Shown piece after piece: positions 968 to 24,941 of a DNA stretch of 31,601 bases. A model generated the notes under the pieces. It was not told where the DNA came from, did not search any database, and saw nothing but the letters and a program-made list of their open reading frames with translations. The position numbers and the translations under genes are program-made. The first letter of the stretch is position 1, and each line of letters starts with the position of its first letter. The stretch is from Minisyncoccota bacterium (GTDB lineage Bacteria > Patescibacteriota > Minisyncoccia > Minisyncoccales > UBA10102), in NCBI GenBank assembly GCA_036397395.1, contig DASWIZ010000038.1:1-31601 (forward strand), read 5' to 3'.

Positions 968-3900
968 ATGCATCGAATTCTCGTTGTAGCAACAGTCTTG
1001 TGCGGCGTAACTCTTCTTGCCCTGCAGGTTTTTGTGCTTGGAGTTTTCTTTTTTTCATTGCGTACAGCGCAAGCCGCTCCTCCGCCGTGCGACGGCACAT
1101 GGAATACTCCCGGGCAGTACGACTGCGTTGTGCCGCCCGGAGTTACTTCAATCGATGTTGAAGTAATGGGTGCCCAGGGAAGTCATCTTGGAGGAAATGG
1201 AGGAGCGGTAAGTACCGTGCTTTCCGGGCTTACGCCAGGCGAAACGCTCCATCTTTTTGTTGGGGGCGAAGGATCTGGCGGGGGAACTACCATTCCTGCT
1301 GGCGGTTTCAACGGCGGAGGCGATGGTGGAAGCGGGCCCGGCGCATTTGCCTATACCGCTCACGGAGGCGGAGGCGGGGGCGGTTCCGACATACGCCGGG
1401 GCGGCAGCGCGCTAGCCGATCGTATCGTGGTCGCCGGAGGAGGAGGCGGAGGCGGAACCAACTATTTCGCTCCTTCCGGACTCGGTGGCGAAGGAGCCTA
1501 CTCAAACGGAGAAAATGGACTGAATGGACAATTCTGTCCACCCCTAGGCTCAAGGGATGGCGGTTGTGGTCACGGAGGCGGAGGCGGAACGCAAGGGAGT
1601 GGGGGAACAGGAGGAACAAGGGGAGTTGGCGGTATCCCGGGAGGCGCATGGGGCAACAACGGTATAAGCGGCTCCGCTGGCGTTGGCGGCAAGGGTGGCG
1701 ATGGTGTTGGCGGTTCCAATAGTGGTCTTTCGGGAGGCGGCGGAGGCGGGGGTTGGTACGGCGGCGGCGGCGGCGGATCAGGAGGTGCGGCGACCACTGC
1801 CGTTGGCTCAGGCCAGCCAGGACACGGAGGAGGCGGCGGCGGCGGATCTAGCTTTGTAAACCCCGCGATTGGCAACAATACGGTTTACACAAATGGGTTT
1901 CGGCTCGGCAACGGCAAAATCATCATTACCTCCCCCTCGAAGTATGCTGCCCCAACAGCTGATTCCATTACCATACCGCCTGGTTGGTACAACGGAAATT
2001 TTCAGGTAAACTATACAGCTTCCGGCGGTTTATGTGAACTGTGGACAAAAGACGGGTCTGATCCCTGGACAAAAAGGGCTGACGTGACTTGCGGCGCAAA
2101 TAAAACGGCCGCCGTTCAAGTTCCCGCGTGGTGTAGTACAACAGGGGTTGGCCAATGCGGAGTGCGTGTTGTGGCAAACCCAGGACCCGCGCCCCAGCAA
2201 GTTTTTTACTTCACGGGGGGGCCGCAGCCCTGGACCGTGCCTCCCGGAGTTACCGAGATACAAATTGATATACGAGGCGCGGAGGGAGAATCCAGCTTTG
2301 TAAGTAACGGCTATGCCGCTGATTCTGGGCCGGCAGGCAAGGGGGGGCGCGTACAGGCAACCATTCCCGTTACTCCACTCGAAATCCTTGAACTTTACGT
2401 AGGCGGAAAAGGTTGGGGCACAGGAAACGGATGGAATGGAGGAGCAAGTGGAGGAGCGGTTATAGGTGGGGCCGGTACCGGAGGAGGCGGTTCCGACATA
2501 CGCCGGGGCGGAAACGCGCTAGCCGATCGTATCGTGGTCGCCGGAGGAGGAGGGGGAGCTGGCAGAGGACTTAACGCTGGCGGCGGAACTGGAGGAAATG
2601 GAGGAGGGGCGTTTAACGCCGCGGATGGACAAATAGGCGGAAAGTTTGCTGGTAACCCTGGTGGAGGCGGGGGAGCAGGAACACTAACAGGAGGAGGCAA
2701 TGGGGGCTTGTCAGGCGGGTTTCCGTTCGGTTACGGCGATATGGGAACATTTGGAAACGGGGGCGCCGGGGGTTCGCACGTCTTTCCTCCTCCCGCATCA
2801 TTTTTTTCCATACCCGGAGGCGGAGGCGGAGGCGGATATTACGGAGGCGGAGGCGGGGGAATGGGCGCGTATGATGTTGGGGACCCTTACGGAGCTGGCG
2901 GAGGCGGAGGCGGAGGCGGATCCAGCTACTGCGATCCCGATCCCGCTGTATGCGGCGGCGTAACGCACGCGCAGGGCTACCAAGGAGGCAACGGCCAGAT
3001 TATTGTGAGCTATATTGTGTCGGGTGCTGGCCCGTCAGTGGAAGGCTTTGCGGATATGGATTTTGAGGCTCCCACCATCGCCAGCTTCACTGCCACAGAC
3101 GGCGTAACCACGGGAGACGTAAACACCCCTCTTGCGGCAGACACTCCCTCCATTACCCTCGCATGGGCAGGCAACGACGCTCCCGGAGGCTCCGGGCTGG
3201 ATCACTACGAAGTATGGCGCAGTCCAGACGGAATGGGAGGCTGGACTAAGATAAGCTCAAACCTGCCTCCCGCCACCACCACCTTCTCTGACGCTCCCGG
3301 AAGCGGAGACTGGTGGTATGGCGTGCGCGCCCTAGACAAGGCCCTGCCTTCTGGCAACTGCATTACCGAAGCCGGCGGCCACTCGTGCGGAGGAGTGGGG
3401 TCAGACGCGTTTGACCCCCGCGCCGTGGTAGGCCCCATCATCGTGCAAATCAACGATCCTCCCAAAGTGGATGCCGGGGGAAACCAAACCATGGACTTCC
3501 CCGGCGCCATTACGCTTGACGGCGCCGTAACAGACGACGGCCTTCCCAACCCTCCCGGAGCGGTAACCACCCTGTGGAGCGTGGTAAGCGGCCCCGGGGC
3601 CGTTACCTTTGCGGACCCCGCTTCCATAGACACGACCGCCTCCTTTACCGTGGAGGGTGTGTATGTGCTGCGCTTGGAGGCGAACGACGGCAAGGCTTCC
3701 GCTTCAGACGAGATTACCATCGGCCCCACGCCTTACGGGCTGGTGCCCTGCGGGGTGGACCGGAACGACCCGAGCACGCCGTATGACGAAACAGATGCAT
3801 GCACGTTTAATCACGTCTTTCTTTTGCTCTGGAACGTGGTGAACTTCGCGCTATGGAAACTGGCGCCGCTTCTTATTGTCATTATGGTGGTGCTTTCCGG

Positions 3901-4084
3901 CGTTATTATGTATTTCCAGCTGGGCGACGTAAATACTTTGGTGCTGGTAAAACGCATTTGGCGGTACGTTGGCATTGGCGTGCTTGTGCTGTTATTTTCC
4001 TGGCTTGCGCTAAACTTTTTCCTGGGCATTTTAGGTTTTAACATAAACATCTTTGGCCAGTGGTTTCAGATAAACCTTAATTAA
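968..4084 (+). CDS. Large secreted, membrane-anchored glycine-rich surface protein. It has two Gly-rich beta-type domains, an FN3-like domain, a PKD/Ig-like domain and a C-terminal two-helix hydrophobic hairpin.
   Basis: N-terminal signal/TM segment (VVATVLCGVTLLALQVFVLGVFFF). Two copies of the module VPPGVTxI..V.GAxG...GGGGGSDIRRGG(S/N)ALADRIVVAGGGGG. FN3-like stretch YEVWRSPDGMGGWTKIS..WWYGVRALD. PKD-like stretch VDAGGNQTMDFPGAITLDGAVTDDG...VEGVYVLRLEANDG. The C-terminus holds two predicted TM helices (LAPLLIVIMVVLSGVIMYF and VGIGVLVLLFSWLALNFFLGILGF). A TATAAT at 951-956 lies just upstream. Confidence 0.7.
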   Translation: MHRILVVATVLCGVTLLALQVFVLGVFFFSLRTAQAAPPPCDGTWNTPGQYDCVVPPGVTSIDVEVMGAQGSHLGGNGGAVSTVLSGLTPGETLHLFVGGEGSGGGTTIPAGGFNGGGDGGSGPGAFAYTAHGGGGGGGSDIRRGGSALADRIVVAGGGGGGGTNYFAPSGLGGEGAYSNGENGLNGQFCPPLGSRDGGCGHGGGGGTQGSGGTGGTRGVGGIPGGAWGNNGISGSAGVGGKGGDGVGGSNSGLSGGGGGGGWYGGGGGGSGGAATTAVGSGQPGHGGGGGGGSSFVNPAIGNNTVYTNGFRLGNGKIIITSPSKYAAPTADSITIPPGWYNGNFQVNYTASGGLCELWTKDGSDPWTKRADVTCGANKTAAVQVPAWCSTTGVGQCGVRVVANPGPAPQQVFYFTGGPQPWTVPPGVTEIQIDIRGAEGESSFVSNGYAADSGPAGKGGRVQATIPVTPLEILELYVGGKGWGTGNGWNGGASGGAVIGGAGTGGGGSDIRRGGNALADRIVVAGGGGGAGRGLNAGGGTGGNGGGAFNAADGQIGGKFAGNPGGGGGAGTLTGGGNGGLSGGFPFGYGDMGTFGNGGAGGSHVFPPPASFFSIPGGGGGGGYYGGGGGGMGAYDVGDPYGAGGGGGGGGSSYCDPDPAVCGGVTHAQGYQGGNGQIIVSYIVSGAGPSVEGFADMDFEAPTIASFTATDGVTTGDVNTPLAADTPSITLAWAGNDAPGGSGLDHYEVWRSPDGMGGWTKISSNLPPATTTFSDAPGSGDWWYGVRALDKALPSGNCITEAGGHSCGGVGSDAFDPRAVVGPIIVQINDPPKVDAGGNQTMDFPGAITLDGAVTDDGLPNPPGAVTTLWSVVSGPGAVTFADPASIDTTASFTVEGVYVLRLEANDGKASASDEITIGPTPYGLVPCGVDRNDPSTPYDETDACTFNHVFLLLWNVVNFALWKLAPLLIVIMVVLSGVIMYFQLGDVNTLVLVKRIWRYVGIGVLVLLFSWLALNFFLGILGFNINIFGQWFQINLN
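1381..1447. repeat. Near-identical ~67-bp direct repeat, copy 1, inside the Gly-rich gene (encodes GGSDIRRGGSALADRIVVAGGGGG)
   Basis: cggttccgacatacgccggggcgg..gcgctagccgatcgtatcgtggtcgccggaggagg recurs at 2488-2554 with about 3-5 mismatches. Confidence 0.8.
2488..2554. repeat. Near-identical ~67-bp direct repeat, copy 2, inside the Gly-rich gene
   Basis: Same sequence as 1381-1447, with aaac in place of cagc and a divergent 3' end. Confidence 0.8.
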
Positions 4085-4146
4085 CCATAATTCGCGCTCT
4101 ATTTTGCGCTTGCGAGAGTACGAGTTGCAACACGCCGTTCCCCGAC

Positions 4147-4512
4147 TTATTTTTTCTTCTTTTTATCGTTGAGTTGTTTGTCGATAATATTGAGTACCTG
4201 TTCAAGCGTAACTTCTTTTGAAGGCAGAATTTCCTCTTTGTTGCCTTTGTGTTTATGGTGAGGAAACGTTGGGACTGTTCGGTGGTGCGGCGCGTTATCC
4301 CAGCGACAGACAAGTTTACCGCTATGAGTTTGCCAGTGGTAGGAATACTTTGTTTCTGTTTTTGTTGTGAGTTCGCGGATATACAGAAAAGAGGTGCCGC
4401 GCAACGTTGCTTTCGCAGAAAAAACCTGGATATCTTCTTCGTCAACAAAATGAAGAATATCCAGGCGTGAAACAACTTTGCTTTTGCGGAGAAGCTCAAT
4501 TAAGTGGTACAT
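4147..4512 (-). CDS. Hypothetical protein with a paired-His motif (RWDNAPHH...FPHHKH) and a lysine-rich tail. Second gene of a two-gene operon.
   Basis: 121-aa ORF that directly abuts the stop of the upstream minus-strand gene (4512/4513). No confident family assignment. Confidence 0.4.
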   Translation of the reverse strand: MYHLIELLRKSKVVSRLDILHFVDEEDIQVFSAKATLRGTSFLYIRELTTKTETKYSYHWQTHSGKLVCRWDNAPHHRTVPTFPHHKHKGNKEEILPSKEVTLEQVLNIIDKQLNDKKKKK

Positions 4513-11080: not shown

Positions 11081-11317
11081 TACGTTCGATGTCCGAAAAG
11101 GACCTACTTGTACCCCGCAGTAGAGCCGAGTTTCTGCTTTTCAGCCCCACAACAAACTACCCTTCCTTACGTTACGTGCTATTCTGTTCCCAAAAGACCT
11201 TCCGCTAGGTGTGGTATATAAACCACGGCCGAAAGCCTTTTTCAATTTCTATACTACCAGAAAGTCATGCTGGTTGTCAAGCGCAGTTTTGGGTAAAAAA
11301 GAACCCGCGGAAAAATC

Positions 11318-11347
11318 TTGTCAAGGGGGCGGGTTTTGTGCTAGCAT
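11318..11347 (+). promoter_or_regulatory. Promoter module copy A (TTGTCA, 18 nt, TAGCAT with an extended TGn)
   Basis: aaatcttgtcaagggggcgggttttgtgctagcatgaa. Two related copies lie at 11889 and 12613. Confidence 0.5.
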
Positions 11348-11626: not shown

Positions 11627-11920
11627 ATGTTTACGCTTGATACGAATATCCTCGTGTACTACGCTGCAGGTGACGGAAAAGTTACCTCTTTTGTTTTTGA
11701 GCGGCTGAAAGAAGGCAAGATTTTTTATGTACCCACAATTGTTGTGGTAGAATTTTTCTCTTTTCCTGCTCTTGGGCCAAAAGATAGTGAGTTGTTTGAA
11801 TATCTTTTTTTACATCTTGACGTAACCGCTCTAGACGTTCGTATCGCCAAAATTGCTGGAGATTTGCGAAAAAGATACGGCCTAAATCTTGTCAAGAGGG
11901 TGGGTGTTGTGCTAACATAA
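11627..11920 (+). pseudogene. PIN-domain (VapC-like) toxin gene, 3'-truncated where promoter module copy B begins
   Basis: Starts MFTLDTNILVYY, the PIN Asp box. A conserved Glu is present (VVVEFF). The reading frame then runs into the repeat element (..KRYGLNLVKRVGVVLT*) before the 3rd and 4th acidic PIN residues would occur. At 97 aa it is short of the ~130 aa expected. Confidence 0.5.
11889..11918 (+). promoter_or_regulatory. Promoter module copy B (TTGTCA, 18 nt, TAACAT)
   Basis: aaatcttgtcaagagggtgggtgttgtgctaacataag. Confidence 0.5.
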
Positions 11921-12563: not shown

Positions 12564-12612
12564 TACCGTCCCAGCTGTGAGCAAAAAGAACGGCCACGCC
12601 CGCGGCAAAATC

Positions 12613-12642
12613 TTGTCAAGGGGTTGCGCAAGGTGGTAAAAT
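12613..12642 (+). promoter_or_regulatory. Promoter module copy C (TTGTCA, 18 nt, TAAAAT)
   Basis: ccgcggcaaaatcttgtcaaggggttgcgcaaggtggtaaaatacag. The ~40 bp upstream of the -35 resemble copy A (aaaaagaac..ccgcgg..aaaatcttgtcaagggg). Confidence 0.5.
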
Positions 12643-12668: not shown

Positions 12669-13187
12669 ATGGCGCAATACACCAAAGAACAATACTGGGC
12701 AATATACGAAAAACTTCCCCAGGAACTAAAAGAGGCGGTGTTTTCCAACGAGGTGGCAGAGCACATTGCGACAGCGTGCGAGCGGAACAACGTGCAGGAA
12801 ATGTCGCAGGTTGCCGCCGCGGTTGGCGACGTGTTAATGGGCGTTACCAAACCAAGCGATTTCCAGCAGGCGCTGCAAAAAGAAGTGGGGTTACAGTTGT
12901 CTGTCGCGCAGGCCGTGGCCCAGGAACTGAACCGGTTTGTGTTTTATCCGGTAAAAGCGCAGTTGGAAGACATTCACCGCGTTCCCGCGGAGCAGCCAGA
13001 GCGGGCAAAAGATATTGGAGTTGCGACCCCCCGGCACGAAGGTGAGCGCAGAACAGCAACACCGCCAGAACCACAGCCCGAAGATGATTATCTTATTGCA
13101 GAGGAGGCCGAGCAACGGCAAGAAGAGGAAATTGTGGAGCAACCAAACCCTCAAGAATCAGATCAGTATAGGGAAAAACCGGAATAA
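12669..13187 (+). CDS. Hypothetical protein with an acidic C-terminal tail, immediately upstream of the VirB3-like gene
   Basis: ATG 12669 (MAQYTKEQYW) lies downstream of promoter copy C. The track start at 12624 is a TTG inside the promoter. Its stop overlaps the next ATG (TAATG). Confidence 0.4.
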   Translation: MAQYTKEQYWAIYEKLPQELKEAVFSNEVAEHIATACERNNVQEMSQVAAAVGDVLMGVTKPSDFQQALQKEVGLQLSVAQAVAQELNRFVFYPVKAQLEDIHRVPAEQPERAKDIGVATPRHEGERRTATPPEPQPEDDYLIAEEAEQRQEEEIVEQPNPQESDQYREKPE

Positions 13188-13606
13188 TGGCGCAATTTGA
13201 AACTCCACAATTTATTGACCGGGAAGCGAAAGTAATAGGCCCGCTTACCTTTAAAAGGGCGGCATATTTGGGTATTCCTTTAGCCGTTATTTTCGCGCTG
13301 TATTTTGTTATGGCGGCAGACAACTTTATTTTGTTTGTGGCCATTTCCATTCTTTTGGAAGGCGGCGGTGTTGCCCTGGCGTTTATAAAACTGGAGGGAA
13401 AAAGCATTCCGGAAATGATTATGAACGCGCTTTTCTTTCTGGTGCGGCCCAAAACATTTGTGTGGAAACGGGGCAATACAAAGCTTACGTACAAAAAAGA
13501 AGAGTATATTAACCCGTATACGGGACCGGAAGGCTTGCCAAAAGACCAGCTTACCCAAAAAAGCAGAATGGCTGACTTGTCCCTAAGAGTTCAAACAAAG
13601 AAATAG
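13187..13606 (+). CDS. VirB3/TrbD/PrgI-like small membrane protein
   Basis: 139 aa with two adjacent TM helices (LGIPLAVIFALYFVMAADNFILFVAISILLEGGGVALAFI). It sits immediately upstream of virB4, the canonical VirB3 position. Confidence 0.5.
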   Translation: MAQFETPQFIDREAKVIGPLTFKRAAYLGIPLAVIFALYFVMAADNFILFVAISILLEGGGVALAFIKLEGKSIPEMIMNALFFLVRPKTFVWKRGNTKLTYKKEEYINPYTGPEGLPKDQLTQKSRMADLSLRVQTKK

Positions 13607-14086
13607 TCCTACGAATTACGAATTCGCGCGAATATACGAATACCCTATTTTATGACGCAATCAACGCTAAGGAGAAACGACTTGATCCATCCGGAGCTAA
13701 GCTATCAAATCGTAGGAATACTCTTTGATGTTTCTAACGAACTTGGGCACGGTTACCAAGAAAAGCATTATCAAAAAGCGATAGCAGCGGCTCTTCAGAA
13801 AGCAGGTATCGCGTACACGGAGCAAGCGCCTGTTCAGATAAACTACAAAGGCGAAAAAGTGGGCATCTACTTCCTTGACTTCCTTATAGAAAATAAAATT
13901 GTCCTTGAAATTAAAAGAGGTGAGTACTTTTCCAAAACTAACCTAAAACAAGTTTCTGGCTATTTAAAAGCAACTGGTTTACAATTAGGGATAGTGGCGA
14001 ACTTTACCGCCAATGGTTTGAAGTTTAAGAGAATCGTCTGCGCTAATCAATATTCGTAAATTCGTATTTATTCGTAATTCGTAGGA
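13607..14086. mobile_element. 480-bp cassette bounded by imperfect ~36-bp terminal inverted repeats (outer 17 bp perfect: TCCTACGAATTACGAAT) and carrying a GxxExxY gene
   Basis: Left end is tcctacgaattacgaattcgcgcgaatatacgaata at 13607-13642. Right end is tattcgtaaattcgtatttattcgtaattcgtagga at 14051-14086. The reverse complement of the right end matches the left end over the outer 17 bp. The cassette starts one base after the virB3-like stop and ends 3 bp before the virB4 N-terminal ATG. Confidence 0.6.
13652..14059 (+). CDS. GxxExxY-family protein (PD-(D/E)XK nuclease superfamily)
   Basis: The motifs are readable in the 135-aa product (..GYQEKHYQKA.., ..LDFLIENKIVLEIKRGEYF..). Confidence 0.65.
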   Translation: MTQSTLRRNDLIHPELSYQIVGILFDVSNELGHGYQEKHYQKAIAAALQKAGIAYTEQAPVQINYKGEKVGIYFLDFLIENKIVLEIKRGEYFSKTNLKQVSGYLKATGLQLGIVANFTANGLKFKRIVCANQYS

Positions 14087-14089
14087 TTT

Positions 14090-14782
14090 ATGGCAAGTTC
14101 TGCTCAAGAATTTTTAGAATTCCAAGATGTCCGCGAAGGCACCATGGTGTTGAAAGACCGCTCCATCCGGGGCATTATGTTAGTGTCGTCCACGAACTTT
14201 GCCTTAAAGTCGCAGGAAGAACAAGACGCCATTGTGTACCAATTCCAAAACTTTTTAAACTCGCTGGATTTTTCCATTCAAATTACCATTCAGTCGCGGC
14301 GGCTGAACATTACCGGGTATATTGACCGATTAAAAGCGCTGGAACAAGAACAAACCAATACCTTGCTGCGCGAGCAAACGGCAGAGTACCGCAAATTCGT
14401 GGAAACGCTTATCGCGGGAGGTTCCATTTTGGCGAAAAACTTTTTTGTGGTAGTGCCGTTTACTCTTATAGAGGCGAATCCCGACGCAAGCCAGACAACC
14501 GCGGGAACGCTGTTTAGGTCAAAGCCAAAGCTGGTGGGAAAGTTAACGGATGACGAGTTTGAGCGCATGAAAACCCAGTTGTGGCAGCGTATGGAGTTTG
14601 TTGCGCTGGGCCTGCGCCGCATGGGCTTGCACGTGGCTCCGTTAAATTCAGAGGAAATTATTGAGCTGTTGTGGACTTGGTACCACCCGGAAGACGCGGA
14701 AGTCGGCTACTATCCGGAAATTCCCCCAGAGATGCTGCAGCAACGAGTGCAAAAGAATGGCCCCTCGACAAACTCGAGGTAA
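14090..14782 (+). CDS. virB4: VirB4/TrbE N-terminal domain, encoded as a separate 230-aa ORF
   Basis: TMVLKDRSIRGIMLVSSTNFALKSQEEQDAIVYQFQNFLNSL parallels the VirB4 N-terminus (LLEDGSIMSIARIDGVAFELEEIE..). It ends at TAA 14780-14782. The remainder of VirB4 continues in another frame from 14797. Confidence 0.55.
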   Translation: MASSAQEFLEFQDVREGTMVLKDRSIRGIMLVSSTNFALKSQEEQDAIVYQFQNFLNSLDFSIQITIQSRRLNITGYIDRLKALEQEQTNTLLREQTAEYRKFVETLIAGGSILAKNFFVVVPFTLIEANPDASQTTAGTLFRSKPKLVGKLTDDEFERMKTQLWQRMEFVALGLRRMGLHVAPLNSEEIIELLWTWYHPEDAEVGYYPEIPPEMLQQRVQKNGPSTNSR

Positions 14783-14796
14783 AAACACACATACAT

Positions 14797-24789: not shown

Positions 24790-24941
24790 TGACGTATTGA
24801 ATGAGATGTCCGCGACGCGGGCATTTATTTGTAAAAGCACGAAGCACGAAATCCGAAGCACGAAACAAGTTTTGAATTTATATATATTTTGGTATTTGAA
24901 TTTGTTTCGAATTTCGATATTCGTATTTCGAATTTAATTAC

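Follow-up and report, generated by a model that had tools for sequence, protein, structure and literature searches.

What is a small nuclease gene framed by inverted repeats doing between two adjacent genes of a type IV secretion system (T4SS) operon? The question is raised by the window analyzed here, a stretch of 31,601 nucleotides (nt) from a Minisyncoccota bacterium (contig DASWIZ010000038.1), in which a unit of 480 nt at positions 13607 to 14086 lies between a PrgI-like gene and the gene for the N-terminal part of VirB4 (VirB4-N). The window is chromosomal DNA of a Parcubacteria bacterium of the candidate phyla radiation, and its closest homologues come from Patescibacteria. An original prediction, made from the sequence alone, had taken the unit for a miniature mobile or selfish cassette carrying a GxxExxY gene. 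Our comparison with related genomes supports this view, as occupancy of the site differs among near-identical genomes and the same cassettes recur in unrelated flanks, bounded at the ends of their arms. We propose, with a probability of roughly 55%, that the unit belongs to a widespread class of discrete, horizontally mobile and selfish cassettes that sit in operon seams, resemble the intervening sequences (IVS) of rRNA genes and have not been found described. Taken by itself, the narrower statement that the unit is a discrete mobile cassette bounded by its arms is very probable.

The first base of the cassette directly follows the TAG stop codon (13604-13606) of the PrgI-like gene, and three nucleotides (ttt) separate its end from the ATG of VirB4-N at 14090, all on the forward strand. 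The arms, at 13607-13642 and 14051-14086, are 36 nt each, 83% complementary and 408 nt apart. The predicted anatomy, namely a 480-bp unit with a GxxExxY gene and imperfect inverted repeats of about 36 bp, starting flush with the virB3-like stop codon and ending 3 bp 5' of the virB4 start codon, proved correct in every detail. This includes the perfect outer 17 bp, since both copies of TCCTACGAATTACGAAT are exact; the window contains this 17-mer at the two cassette ends only, one copy on each strand, against a chance expectation of 0.04 and with two or more matches in 0 of 100 shuffles. Each arm consists of four TACNAAT heptamers, the two arms being mutually inverted. In the left arm, TACGAAT stands at 13610-13616, 13617-13623 and 13635-13641, with a degenerate CGCGAAT at 13627-13633, and in the right arm ATTCGTA words stand at 14052-14058, 14060-14066, 14070-14076 and 14077-14083. 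The GxxExxY gene (13652-14059, forward strand, 135 amino acids [aa]) ends with a TAA stop codon (14057-14059) that falls within the innermost right-arm word, and an alternative TTG start at 13682, which is the call of JGI (P0001), gives a 125-aa form. The right arm itself terminates in TAGGA (14082-14086), a Shine-Dalgarno-like sequence 3 nt 5' of the downstream ATG that may serve the VirB4-N gene. A consensus scan found no promoter-like or terminator-like sites inside the cassette, and an Rfam search found no families in it and only two tRNAs in the whole window.

Support for mobility comes from filled, empty and swapped alleles of the same seam. A metagenome scan with the VirB4-N protein gave 75 loci, labelled here by L numbers, and in most of them the gap between the virB3-like gene and virB4 is -10 to +22 nt, so that the two genes are indeed normally adjacent. 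In L008, whose flanking proteins are 94 to 95% and whose flanking DNA is 88 to 92% identical to those of the window, with collinearity at 88 to 96% nucleotide identity, positions 13606 to 14088 of the window correspond to a TAA codon, a 19-nt spacer and an ATG codon (TAA-atttgttacaataaagtct-ATG), and the seam is empty. Alignment of the junctions found the PrgI/VirB4 seam empty in L009 to L018 too, although L013 appears with a PF05635 cassette in the comparison along the VirB4-N tree. The L008 spacer (ATnTGnTACAAT...) is common to lineages about 75% identical (L010 to L018), which argues that the empty state is old, and probably ancestral at this seam, and that the window appears to have gained its cassette. 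Moreover, occupancy differs within three tight groups of the VirB4-N tree: the window (GxxExxY) versus L008 (empty) at 94% aa identity of VirB4-N; L002 (GxxExxY), L019 (PF05635 cassette) and L015 (empty) at 97 to 100%; and L010 (empty) versus L013 (PF05635 cassette) at 96%. Within a sister clade, genomes 97 to 99% identical at this seam have either a GxxExxY cassette, a 23S_rRNA_IVP cassette or no insert in it. L001 to L007 carry a GxxExxY gene 78 to 79% identical at the PrgI/VirB4 seam and keep recognizable arms, and thus do not show the same gene at the seam without repeats, the finding that would have told against the original prediction. L008 in turn has a different GxxExxY cassette (3688-4186) at the VirB4-N/VirB4-C seam, with a protein 37% identical and words of the form T[AC]C[GA]AAT; this second seam, at 14783-14796 on the forward strand of the window, is empty (14 nt).

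The alleles may also bear on how the cassette might be exchanged. Between L002 and L019 there are 10 differences in 660 nt, 4 of them in the first 60 nt after the ATG, where on the alignment they lie no more than about 30 nt from it, and the alleles differ in the final three codons and in the stop codon as well. Differences between L002 and L015 likewise cluster at the seam, with no such clustering between the window and L008. These seam-adjacent substitutions may represent short co-conversion tracts.

Beyond this seam, the limits of the mobile unit are seen in three loci (L140, L152 and L153) whose cassettes are 77 to 84% identical in nucleotide sequence and lie in unrelated flanks: the homology runs exactly from outer arm end to outer arm end, and each unit starts 0 to 3 nt after a stop codon. 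The trio has no target-site duplication, nor has the window compared with the empty L008 site, and the duplication that the original prediction had suggested looking for was seen in none of our comparisons. No conserved target sequence was found either, as left flanks vary (TAG|, TAAcga|, TGAt|...). Hence, the predicted site-specific insertion is too strong a term, as the cassettes share no target and show only a preference for the stop-start gap of co-directional genes. The preference is reflected in orientation, with the cassette co-oriented with its upstream neighbor in 51 of 60 cases and with its downstream neighbor in 57 of 61, and in placement, the median distance being 2 nt from the upstream stop codon to the left arm and 6 nt from the right arm to the downstream start codon.

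A genome scan added 80 further loci, mostly from Patescibacteria with about ten from Bacteroidota. For 78 non-redundant GxxExxY genes, the left flank was aligned to the reverse complement of the right, and inverted flanks (score of at least 30) were found at 79% of them compared with 3% of 285 control open reading frames (ORFs) from the same loci. The search of other genomes for GxxExxY genes with the same flanks thus bore out the original prediction as far as the repeats are concerned, which are real; they are no peculiarity of this locus, however, as arms of heptamer arrays are typical of the GxxExxY subfamily. The rpsG/fusA seam holds such a cassette in 8 of the 78 cases (L085, L086, L088, L089, L092, L099, L102 and L106), with the three word variants TACAAAT, TACTAAT and TACGAAT. 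Most similar cassettes occupy orthologous sites, and orthologous cassettes are conserved as well as or better than their flanks (window versus L007, 76% versus 69 to 72% nucleotide identity). The 31.6-kb window has one cassette copy. Among 20 related cassettes none adjoins rRNA, and only two unrelated tRNAs lie in the 20 loci.

Across 126 arms the consensus reads (T/C)C-TACNAAT-(0-1)-TACNAAT-(3-4)-TACNAAT-N-TACNAAT, and each of the bases T, A, C, A and A is kept in about 75 to 98% of the arms in those three words that align well. The variable position of the word is uniform within a cassette regardless of word index (0.81, 0.82 and 0.83), and the word variant shifts with protein divergence. 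In 812 kb of related loci there are 130 strict TACNAA[AT] arrays, 104 of them beside a GxxExxY gene and 9 in the form of hairpins without an ORF, which speaks against a common intergenic motif unrelated to the gene. In plasmid and phage collections we found only four distant plasmid matches, without TACNAAT arrays and with other flank repeats, so that the conserved word is a property of the sampled subfamily of the candidate phyla radiation (CPR) and Bacteroidota, with proteins at least 45% identical. Two of the plasmids, pTS1 of Treponema saccharophilum (L163, 1380-1990) and a plasmid of Fusobacteria ZRK30 (L164, 1380-1990), encode GxxExxY proteins 33 to 34% identical, and their flank repeats share AATCCGTGT, as an 11-nt inverted repeat in Treponema and as a direct repeat of about 45 nt in the Fusobacteria plasmid.

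Arrays without a gene were observed as well. The window itself has an ORF-less inverted array at 24830-24935 (GCACGAA three times, then TTTCGAA/ATTCGTA four times), which ends 6 nt 5' of the nusA start codon (24942), folds at -25.3 kcal/mol (z = -2.9) and may represent either what is left of a cassette or a non-autonomous hairpin. In other lineages, the PrgI/VirB4 seam is filled by ORF-less inverted or one-sided arrays, namely in L024 (2917-2995), L067 (1236-1331) and L041 (797-827), with the words TAAGGGGTGAG..., AGCTWAT four times/AAGCTAA five times and CTACTAA three times, respectively. A full ORF-less hairpin with left and right arrays adjoins the GxxExxY gene in L084 (171-714), L111, L158 and L159; it lies upstream of the gene in the latter three, and in L084 the gene stands between two hairpins and not inside one.

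The architecture is shared by a second protein family. Genes of PF05635 (23S_rRNA_IVP), an Avd-like four-helix bundle and not a nuclease, are found at the PrgI/VirB4 seam or just upstream of PrgI in L013 (220-660), L019 (28-503), L073 (2459-2995), L077 (2531-2986), L007 (100-552) and L056 (54-450), and the seam itself holds such a cassette in L013, L019, L073 and L077. All six of these genes are framed by inverted arrays of tandem words, and such arrays bracket 13 of 15 distinct testable PF05635 genes, the words differing widely between cassettes.

The cargo of the window cassette is readily assigned. The ORF at 13652-14059 scores 107.3 bits on PF13366 (PDDEXK_3; cut-off, 22) and 112.1 bits on TIGR04256 (GxxExxY; cut-off, 35), both above the curated cut-offs, in agreement with the PD-(D/E)XK identity first given to it. 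The GxxExxY motif and the D...ExK catalytic core are both present, and G24, E27, Y30, D66, E76 and K78 are invariant or nearly so in 83 homologues. An AlphaFold2 model (predicted local distance difference test score [pLDDT], 93) has the PD-(D/E)XK fold, its best structural matches being Cas4, lambda exonuclease and restriction-endonuclease-like folds; the match to the catalytic domain of I-Bth0305I is weak (E = 0.03). Judging from this model, the protein is a minimal nuclease of Cas4-like fold. At about 125 to 135 aa, it is shorter than nucleases of the Cas4 (SSO0001, Pcal_0546) and lambda exonuclease type, which have about 200 aa or more, and it differs from Cas4 in the absence of a CRISPR context and of a sequence-level PDB match, the sequence search having returned no PDB relatives. 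A PADLOC search against defence families gave no match.

Among described entities, the intervening sequence of bacterial 23S and 16S rRNA genes comes closest to the cassette. The IVS of the Coxiella burnetii 23S rRNA gene has 428 nt and encodes S23p (PF05635) within an inverted-repeat stem that is cut by RNase III, with two to three tandem GACAGAT heptamers at the cut site, and its mobility has long been suspected and not demonstrated (PMC4990558). The likeness to our cassette extends to a size of about 430 to 480 nt, a small ORF in an inverted-repeat stem, tandem heptamers in the arm, a sporadic distribution, the lack of a known transposase and a suspected but unproven mobility, and it is reinforced by the PF05635 cassettes that occupy the same PrgI/VirB4 seam in relatives. 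In contrast, our cassette lies between protein-coding genes and not in an rRNA helix, the window having no rRNA, and carries PF13366 instead of PF05635, with the conserved word TACNAAT four times per arm. A survey of CPR rRNA insertions lists 22 PF05635 ORFs, and PDDEXK_3 is not among its listed ORF families (PMC11270868). As the cassette departs from an IVS in both its site and its cargo, we file it as an IVS-like variant and not as an IVS.

Several observations weigh against our proposal or against parts of it. The flush placement is partly trivial, because empty seams measure only 0 to 22 nt and any insertion into them looks flush, and it is thus weakened as proof of a special mechanism; the sense-orientation bias is not explained by the shortness of the seams. 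The long persistence of orthologous cassettes could point to host benefit rather than selfishness. PF05635 cassettes have the same architecture with quite different words and without a nuclease, so that a nuclease is not generally required for such elements, and the interaction between nuclease and arms is one that we purely infer. Selection on an RNA stem finds no support either. Among 63 cassettes, G-U-compatible mismatches are as frequent on the sense strand as on the antisense strand (59 versus 64), and the sense and antisense duplexes do not differ in energy (P = 0.85). Nor does the variable position of the word covary between arms in a manner that depends on word index (0.81 versus 0.82), and the spacers between words show little complementarity (0.39 versus 0.30 by chance). 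The stem forms by construction, and the arms hence behave as arrays of one word and not as a stem kept by compensatory change. Such word arrays fit recognition by a protein, and a role of the RNA remains compatible with them.

An explanation at the RNA level only would take the arms as an RNase III substrate or as a stem for coupling, with the ORF as a passenger and with spread by ordinary homologous recombination or by horizontal transfer of filled alleles. It matches the Coxiella 23S IVS with its ORF, stem, heptamers and RNase III cut at the first repeat, and the PF05635 cassettes with arbitrary words in the same seams. The strong sense-orientation bias is in its favor, as is the minimum-free-energy fold of the sense RNA, which pairs both arms and loops out the cassette (z = -3.3), and the complementarity of the arms extends over the stop and start codons at some loci. 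Nevertheless, we regard it as unlikely. The missing G-U excess and covariation described above speak against it, and TACNAAT is conserved as a sequence in both CPR and Bacteroidota, something that a stem alone would not require. The catalytic residues of the nuclease are under purifying selection. Moreover, related cassettes lie in unrelated flanks with boundaries exactly at the arm ends, which calls for an illegitimate event at the DNA level.

Somewhat less probable still is an autonomous transposon with terminal inverted repeats, in which GxxExxY would act like a transposase, bind the four plus four TACNAAT words and possibly use single-stranded hairpin intermediates without duplication. As in classical transposons of this kind, inverted repeats bound the unit and homology in unrelated flanks stops at the arm ends. 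The conserved word stands four times in each inverted arm, the words of one cassette share one variant, which changes as the proteins diverge, the ORF-less hairpins resemble non-autonomous copies, and the Cas4-like nuclease fold belongs to a group acting on single-stranded DNA. However, there is no target-site duplication, and the only ORF encodes 125 to 135 aa of PD-(D/E)XK and no DDE, HUH, serine or tyrosine transposase; to our knowledge, no known transposase is a PD-(D/E)XK domain of this size alone. The low copy number, the orthologous sites of most related cassettes, an orientation bias not expected of a DNA transposon and the PF05635 cassettes without nuclease likewise tell against it. 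REPIN-RAYT systems, in which REP-associated tyrosine transposases (RAYTs) are flanked by inverted REP sequences, offer a related comparison: they too have a single small gene in inverted repeats that also occur as intergenic ORF-less hairpins, and copies that are mostly vertical with occasional movement. They differ in that the cassette protein is PD-(D/E)XK (PF13366 only) and not an HUH/Y1 enzyme, that its repeats are tandem heptamer arrays and not REP palindromes, and that ORF-less copies were few.

Free-standing homing endonuclease genes, such as seg and mob of phage T4, are known, and PD-(D/E)XK homing enzymes exist, e.g., I-Ssp6803I. Like them, the cassette places a small nuclease gene between conserved genes and has filled and empty alleles in close relatives without target duplication; the differences clustered near the seam in the L002 comparisons may hint at short co-conversion tracts. 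Homing endonuclease genes, in contrast, have neither terminal inverted repeats nor heptamer arrays, both of which the cassette has, and its architecture is also found with non-nuclease cargo. An integron gene cassette was rejected, as the ORF lies inside the inverted repeat and not beside an attC site, and the window ORFs tested gave no integrase match.

A resident that benefits its host, whether as a regulator with the heptamers as operators or as a maintenance or defence nuclease, inherited vertically and occasionally lost or swapped by recombination, is improbable. It would account for the conservation of orthologous cassettes, which diverge as much as or less than their flanks, for the intact ORF with its conserved catalytic residues and for the occupation of the same seams over large phylogenetic distances, including 8 of 78 at rpsG/fusA. 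On the other hand, presence, absence and replacement are seen among genomes 94 to 100% identical in the flanking protein, and one seam accommodates either of two unrelated protein families. Similar cassettes in unrelated contexts, the existence of ORF-less remnants and the lack of a PADLOC match argue in the same direction. Finally, the view that an ordinary hypothetical gene happens to lie within a chance inverted repeat, or that the unit is an artefact of assembly, is refuted for practical purposes by the outer 17-mer found twice where 0.04 is expected, by arms at 79% of homologues compared with 3% of control ORFs and by their recurrence in independent JGI, ENA, NCBI and Logan assemblies.

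Tandem 7-nt words of this kind have precedents outside cassettes. Intergenic TAACTGA heptamer arrays are described in Beggiatoaceae, cyanobacteria and Bacteroidetes (PMC4679880) and four-heptamer elements in Geobacter (PMC2700814); these arrays of two to six copies, of unknown function, often end 1 nt before a start codon. They differ from our arms in being direct repeats without an enclosed gene or inverted partner, and no link to GxxExxY or PF05635 has been reported for them. Our literature search on GxxExxY, PDDEXK_3, PF05635, heptamer repeats and IVS found no description of such cassettes and no mention of GxxExxY in a cassette context, in line with the earlier remark that a context bounded by terminal inverted repeats is not standard knowledge for this family.

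We propose the following model for the IVS-like seam cassette. The cassette would be transcribed as part of the T4SS operon, and its arms would pair in the transcript into a stem of about 36 bp, in keeping with the predicted fold of the sense RNA, looping out the cassette and bringing the PrgI stop codon beside the VirB4 start codon. By analogy with rRNA intervening sequences, RNase III may cut this stem. Such looping or processing would explain why insertion is tolerated even in essential operons, e.g., rpsG-fusA; whether the arms have a role in RNA looping or processing is, in our estimate, an even question. The nuclease and the eight TACNAAT words would be the trans and cis components of the spread or retention of the cassette, although we hold an action of the nuclease on the arms or on the empty allele to be somewhat doubtful. 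Related alleles would exchange the cassette by break-induced, homing-like copying, and insertion into a new seam would be rare.

The neighborhood of the cassette is that of a T4SS operon in a genomic region that also includes genes for TrbL/VirB6, a T4SS pilin, nusA, clpP and RNase Y. The upstream PrgI-like gene (13187-13606, forward strand, 139 aa, stop codon as above) is taken as the VirB3 analogue; its PrgI match is weak (Pfam E = 0.003, under the cut-off), and in over 60 related loci its homologues likewise stand 5' of the VirB4 gene. Downstream, the gene at 14090-14782 (forward strand) encodes the TraC-like N-terminal part of a natively split VirB4, with NCBIfam VirB4-type matches, and in its orthologues a PF26593 (TraC-like) ORF precedes a distinct ATPase ORF. 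A frameshift or assembly error as the source of the split was ruled out, as ORFs of 220 and 621 aa with a 4-nt overlap are found in independent assemblies; the N-terminal and ATPase ORFs overlap by 4 nt in L002. In the window, the VirB4 ATPase ORF (14797-18711) contains an intein (about 15577-17571) with a LAGLIDADG_3 homing-endonuclease domain in its P-loop region; this insert of about 2 kb has no counterpart in L008, L002 and L015, and L010 aligns through. At the head of the cassette-containing operon, a consensus scan found a promoter-like site (TTGTCA, 18 nt, TAAAAT, with TG) at 12613-12642 on the forward strand. A 35-nt promoter-like direct repeat (AAATCTTGTCAAGGGG...TAnnAT) occurs in three copies, at 11313-11347, 11884-11918 and 12608-12642, which head successive small modules: an AbrB-like gene with PIN, DUF5678 with an aspartyl protease, and the T4SS operon. 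The third copy contains the promoter-like site just named. The segment 10574-12606 of the window has no counterpart in L008.

Our study gives the GxxExxY family (TIGR04256/PF13366), many members of which are annotated as hypothetical proteins of unknown function, a defined genomic anatomy and a concrete candidate ligand, DNA or RNA, in the TACNAAT arrays. The class generalizes to nuclease or four-helix-bundle cassettes with inverted heptamer arrays in operon seams. A bolder formulation, which we consider a speculative possibility, is that GxxExxY genes with four plus four TACNAAT words form an unrecognized and widespread mobile seam cassette that inserts into the stop-start gap of co-transcribed genes, is neutralized by a hairpin looping it out of the transcript and uses a minimal Cas4-like nuclease instead of a transposase, the classical rRNA IVS with PF05635 cargo being a special case. 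Annotation pipelines could recognize such cassettes, and comparative genomics of CPR should expect them in T4SS and rpsG-fusA operons. If the hairpin preserves the expression of the flanking genes, it would represent a natural design for the insertion of cargo into operons without polar effects. The cassette is thereby linked to rRNA intervening sequences, for whose origin and mobility there has never been an explanation. If the seam-cassette class is true, this 35-year-old question would gain a model that is tractable and in which filled, empty and swapped alleles occur naturally.

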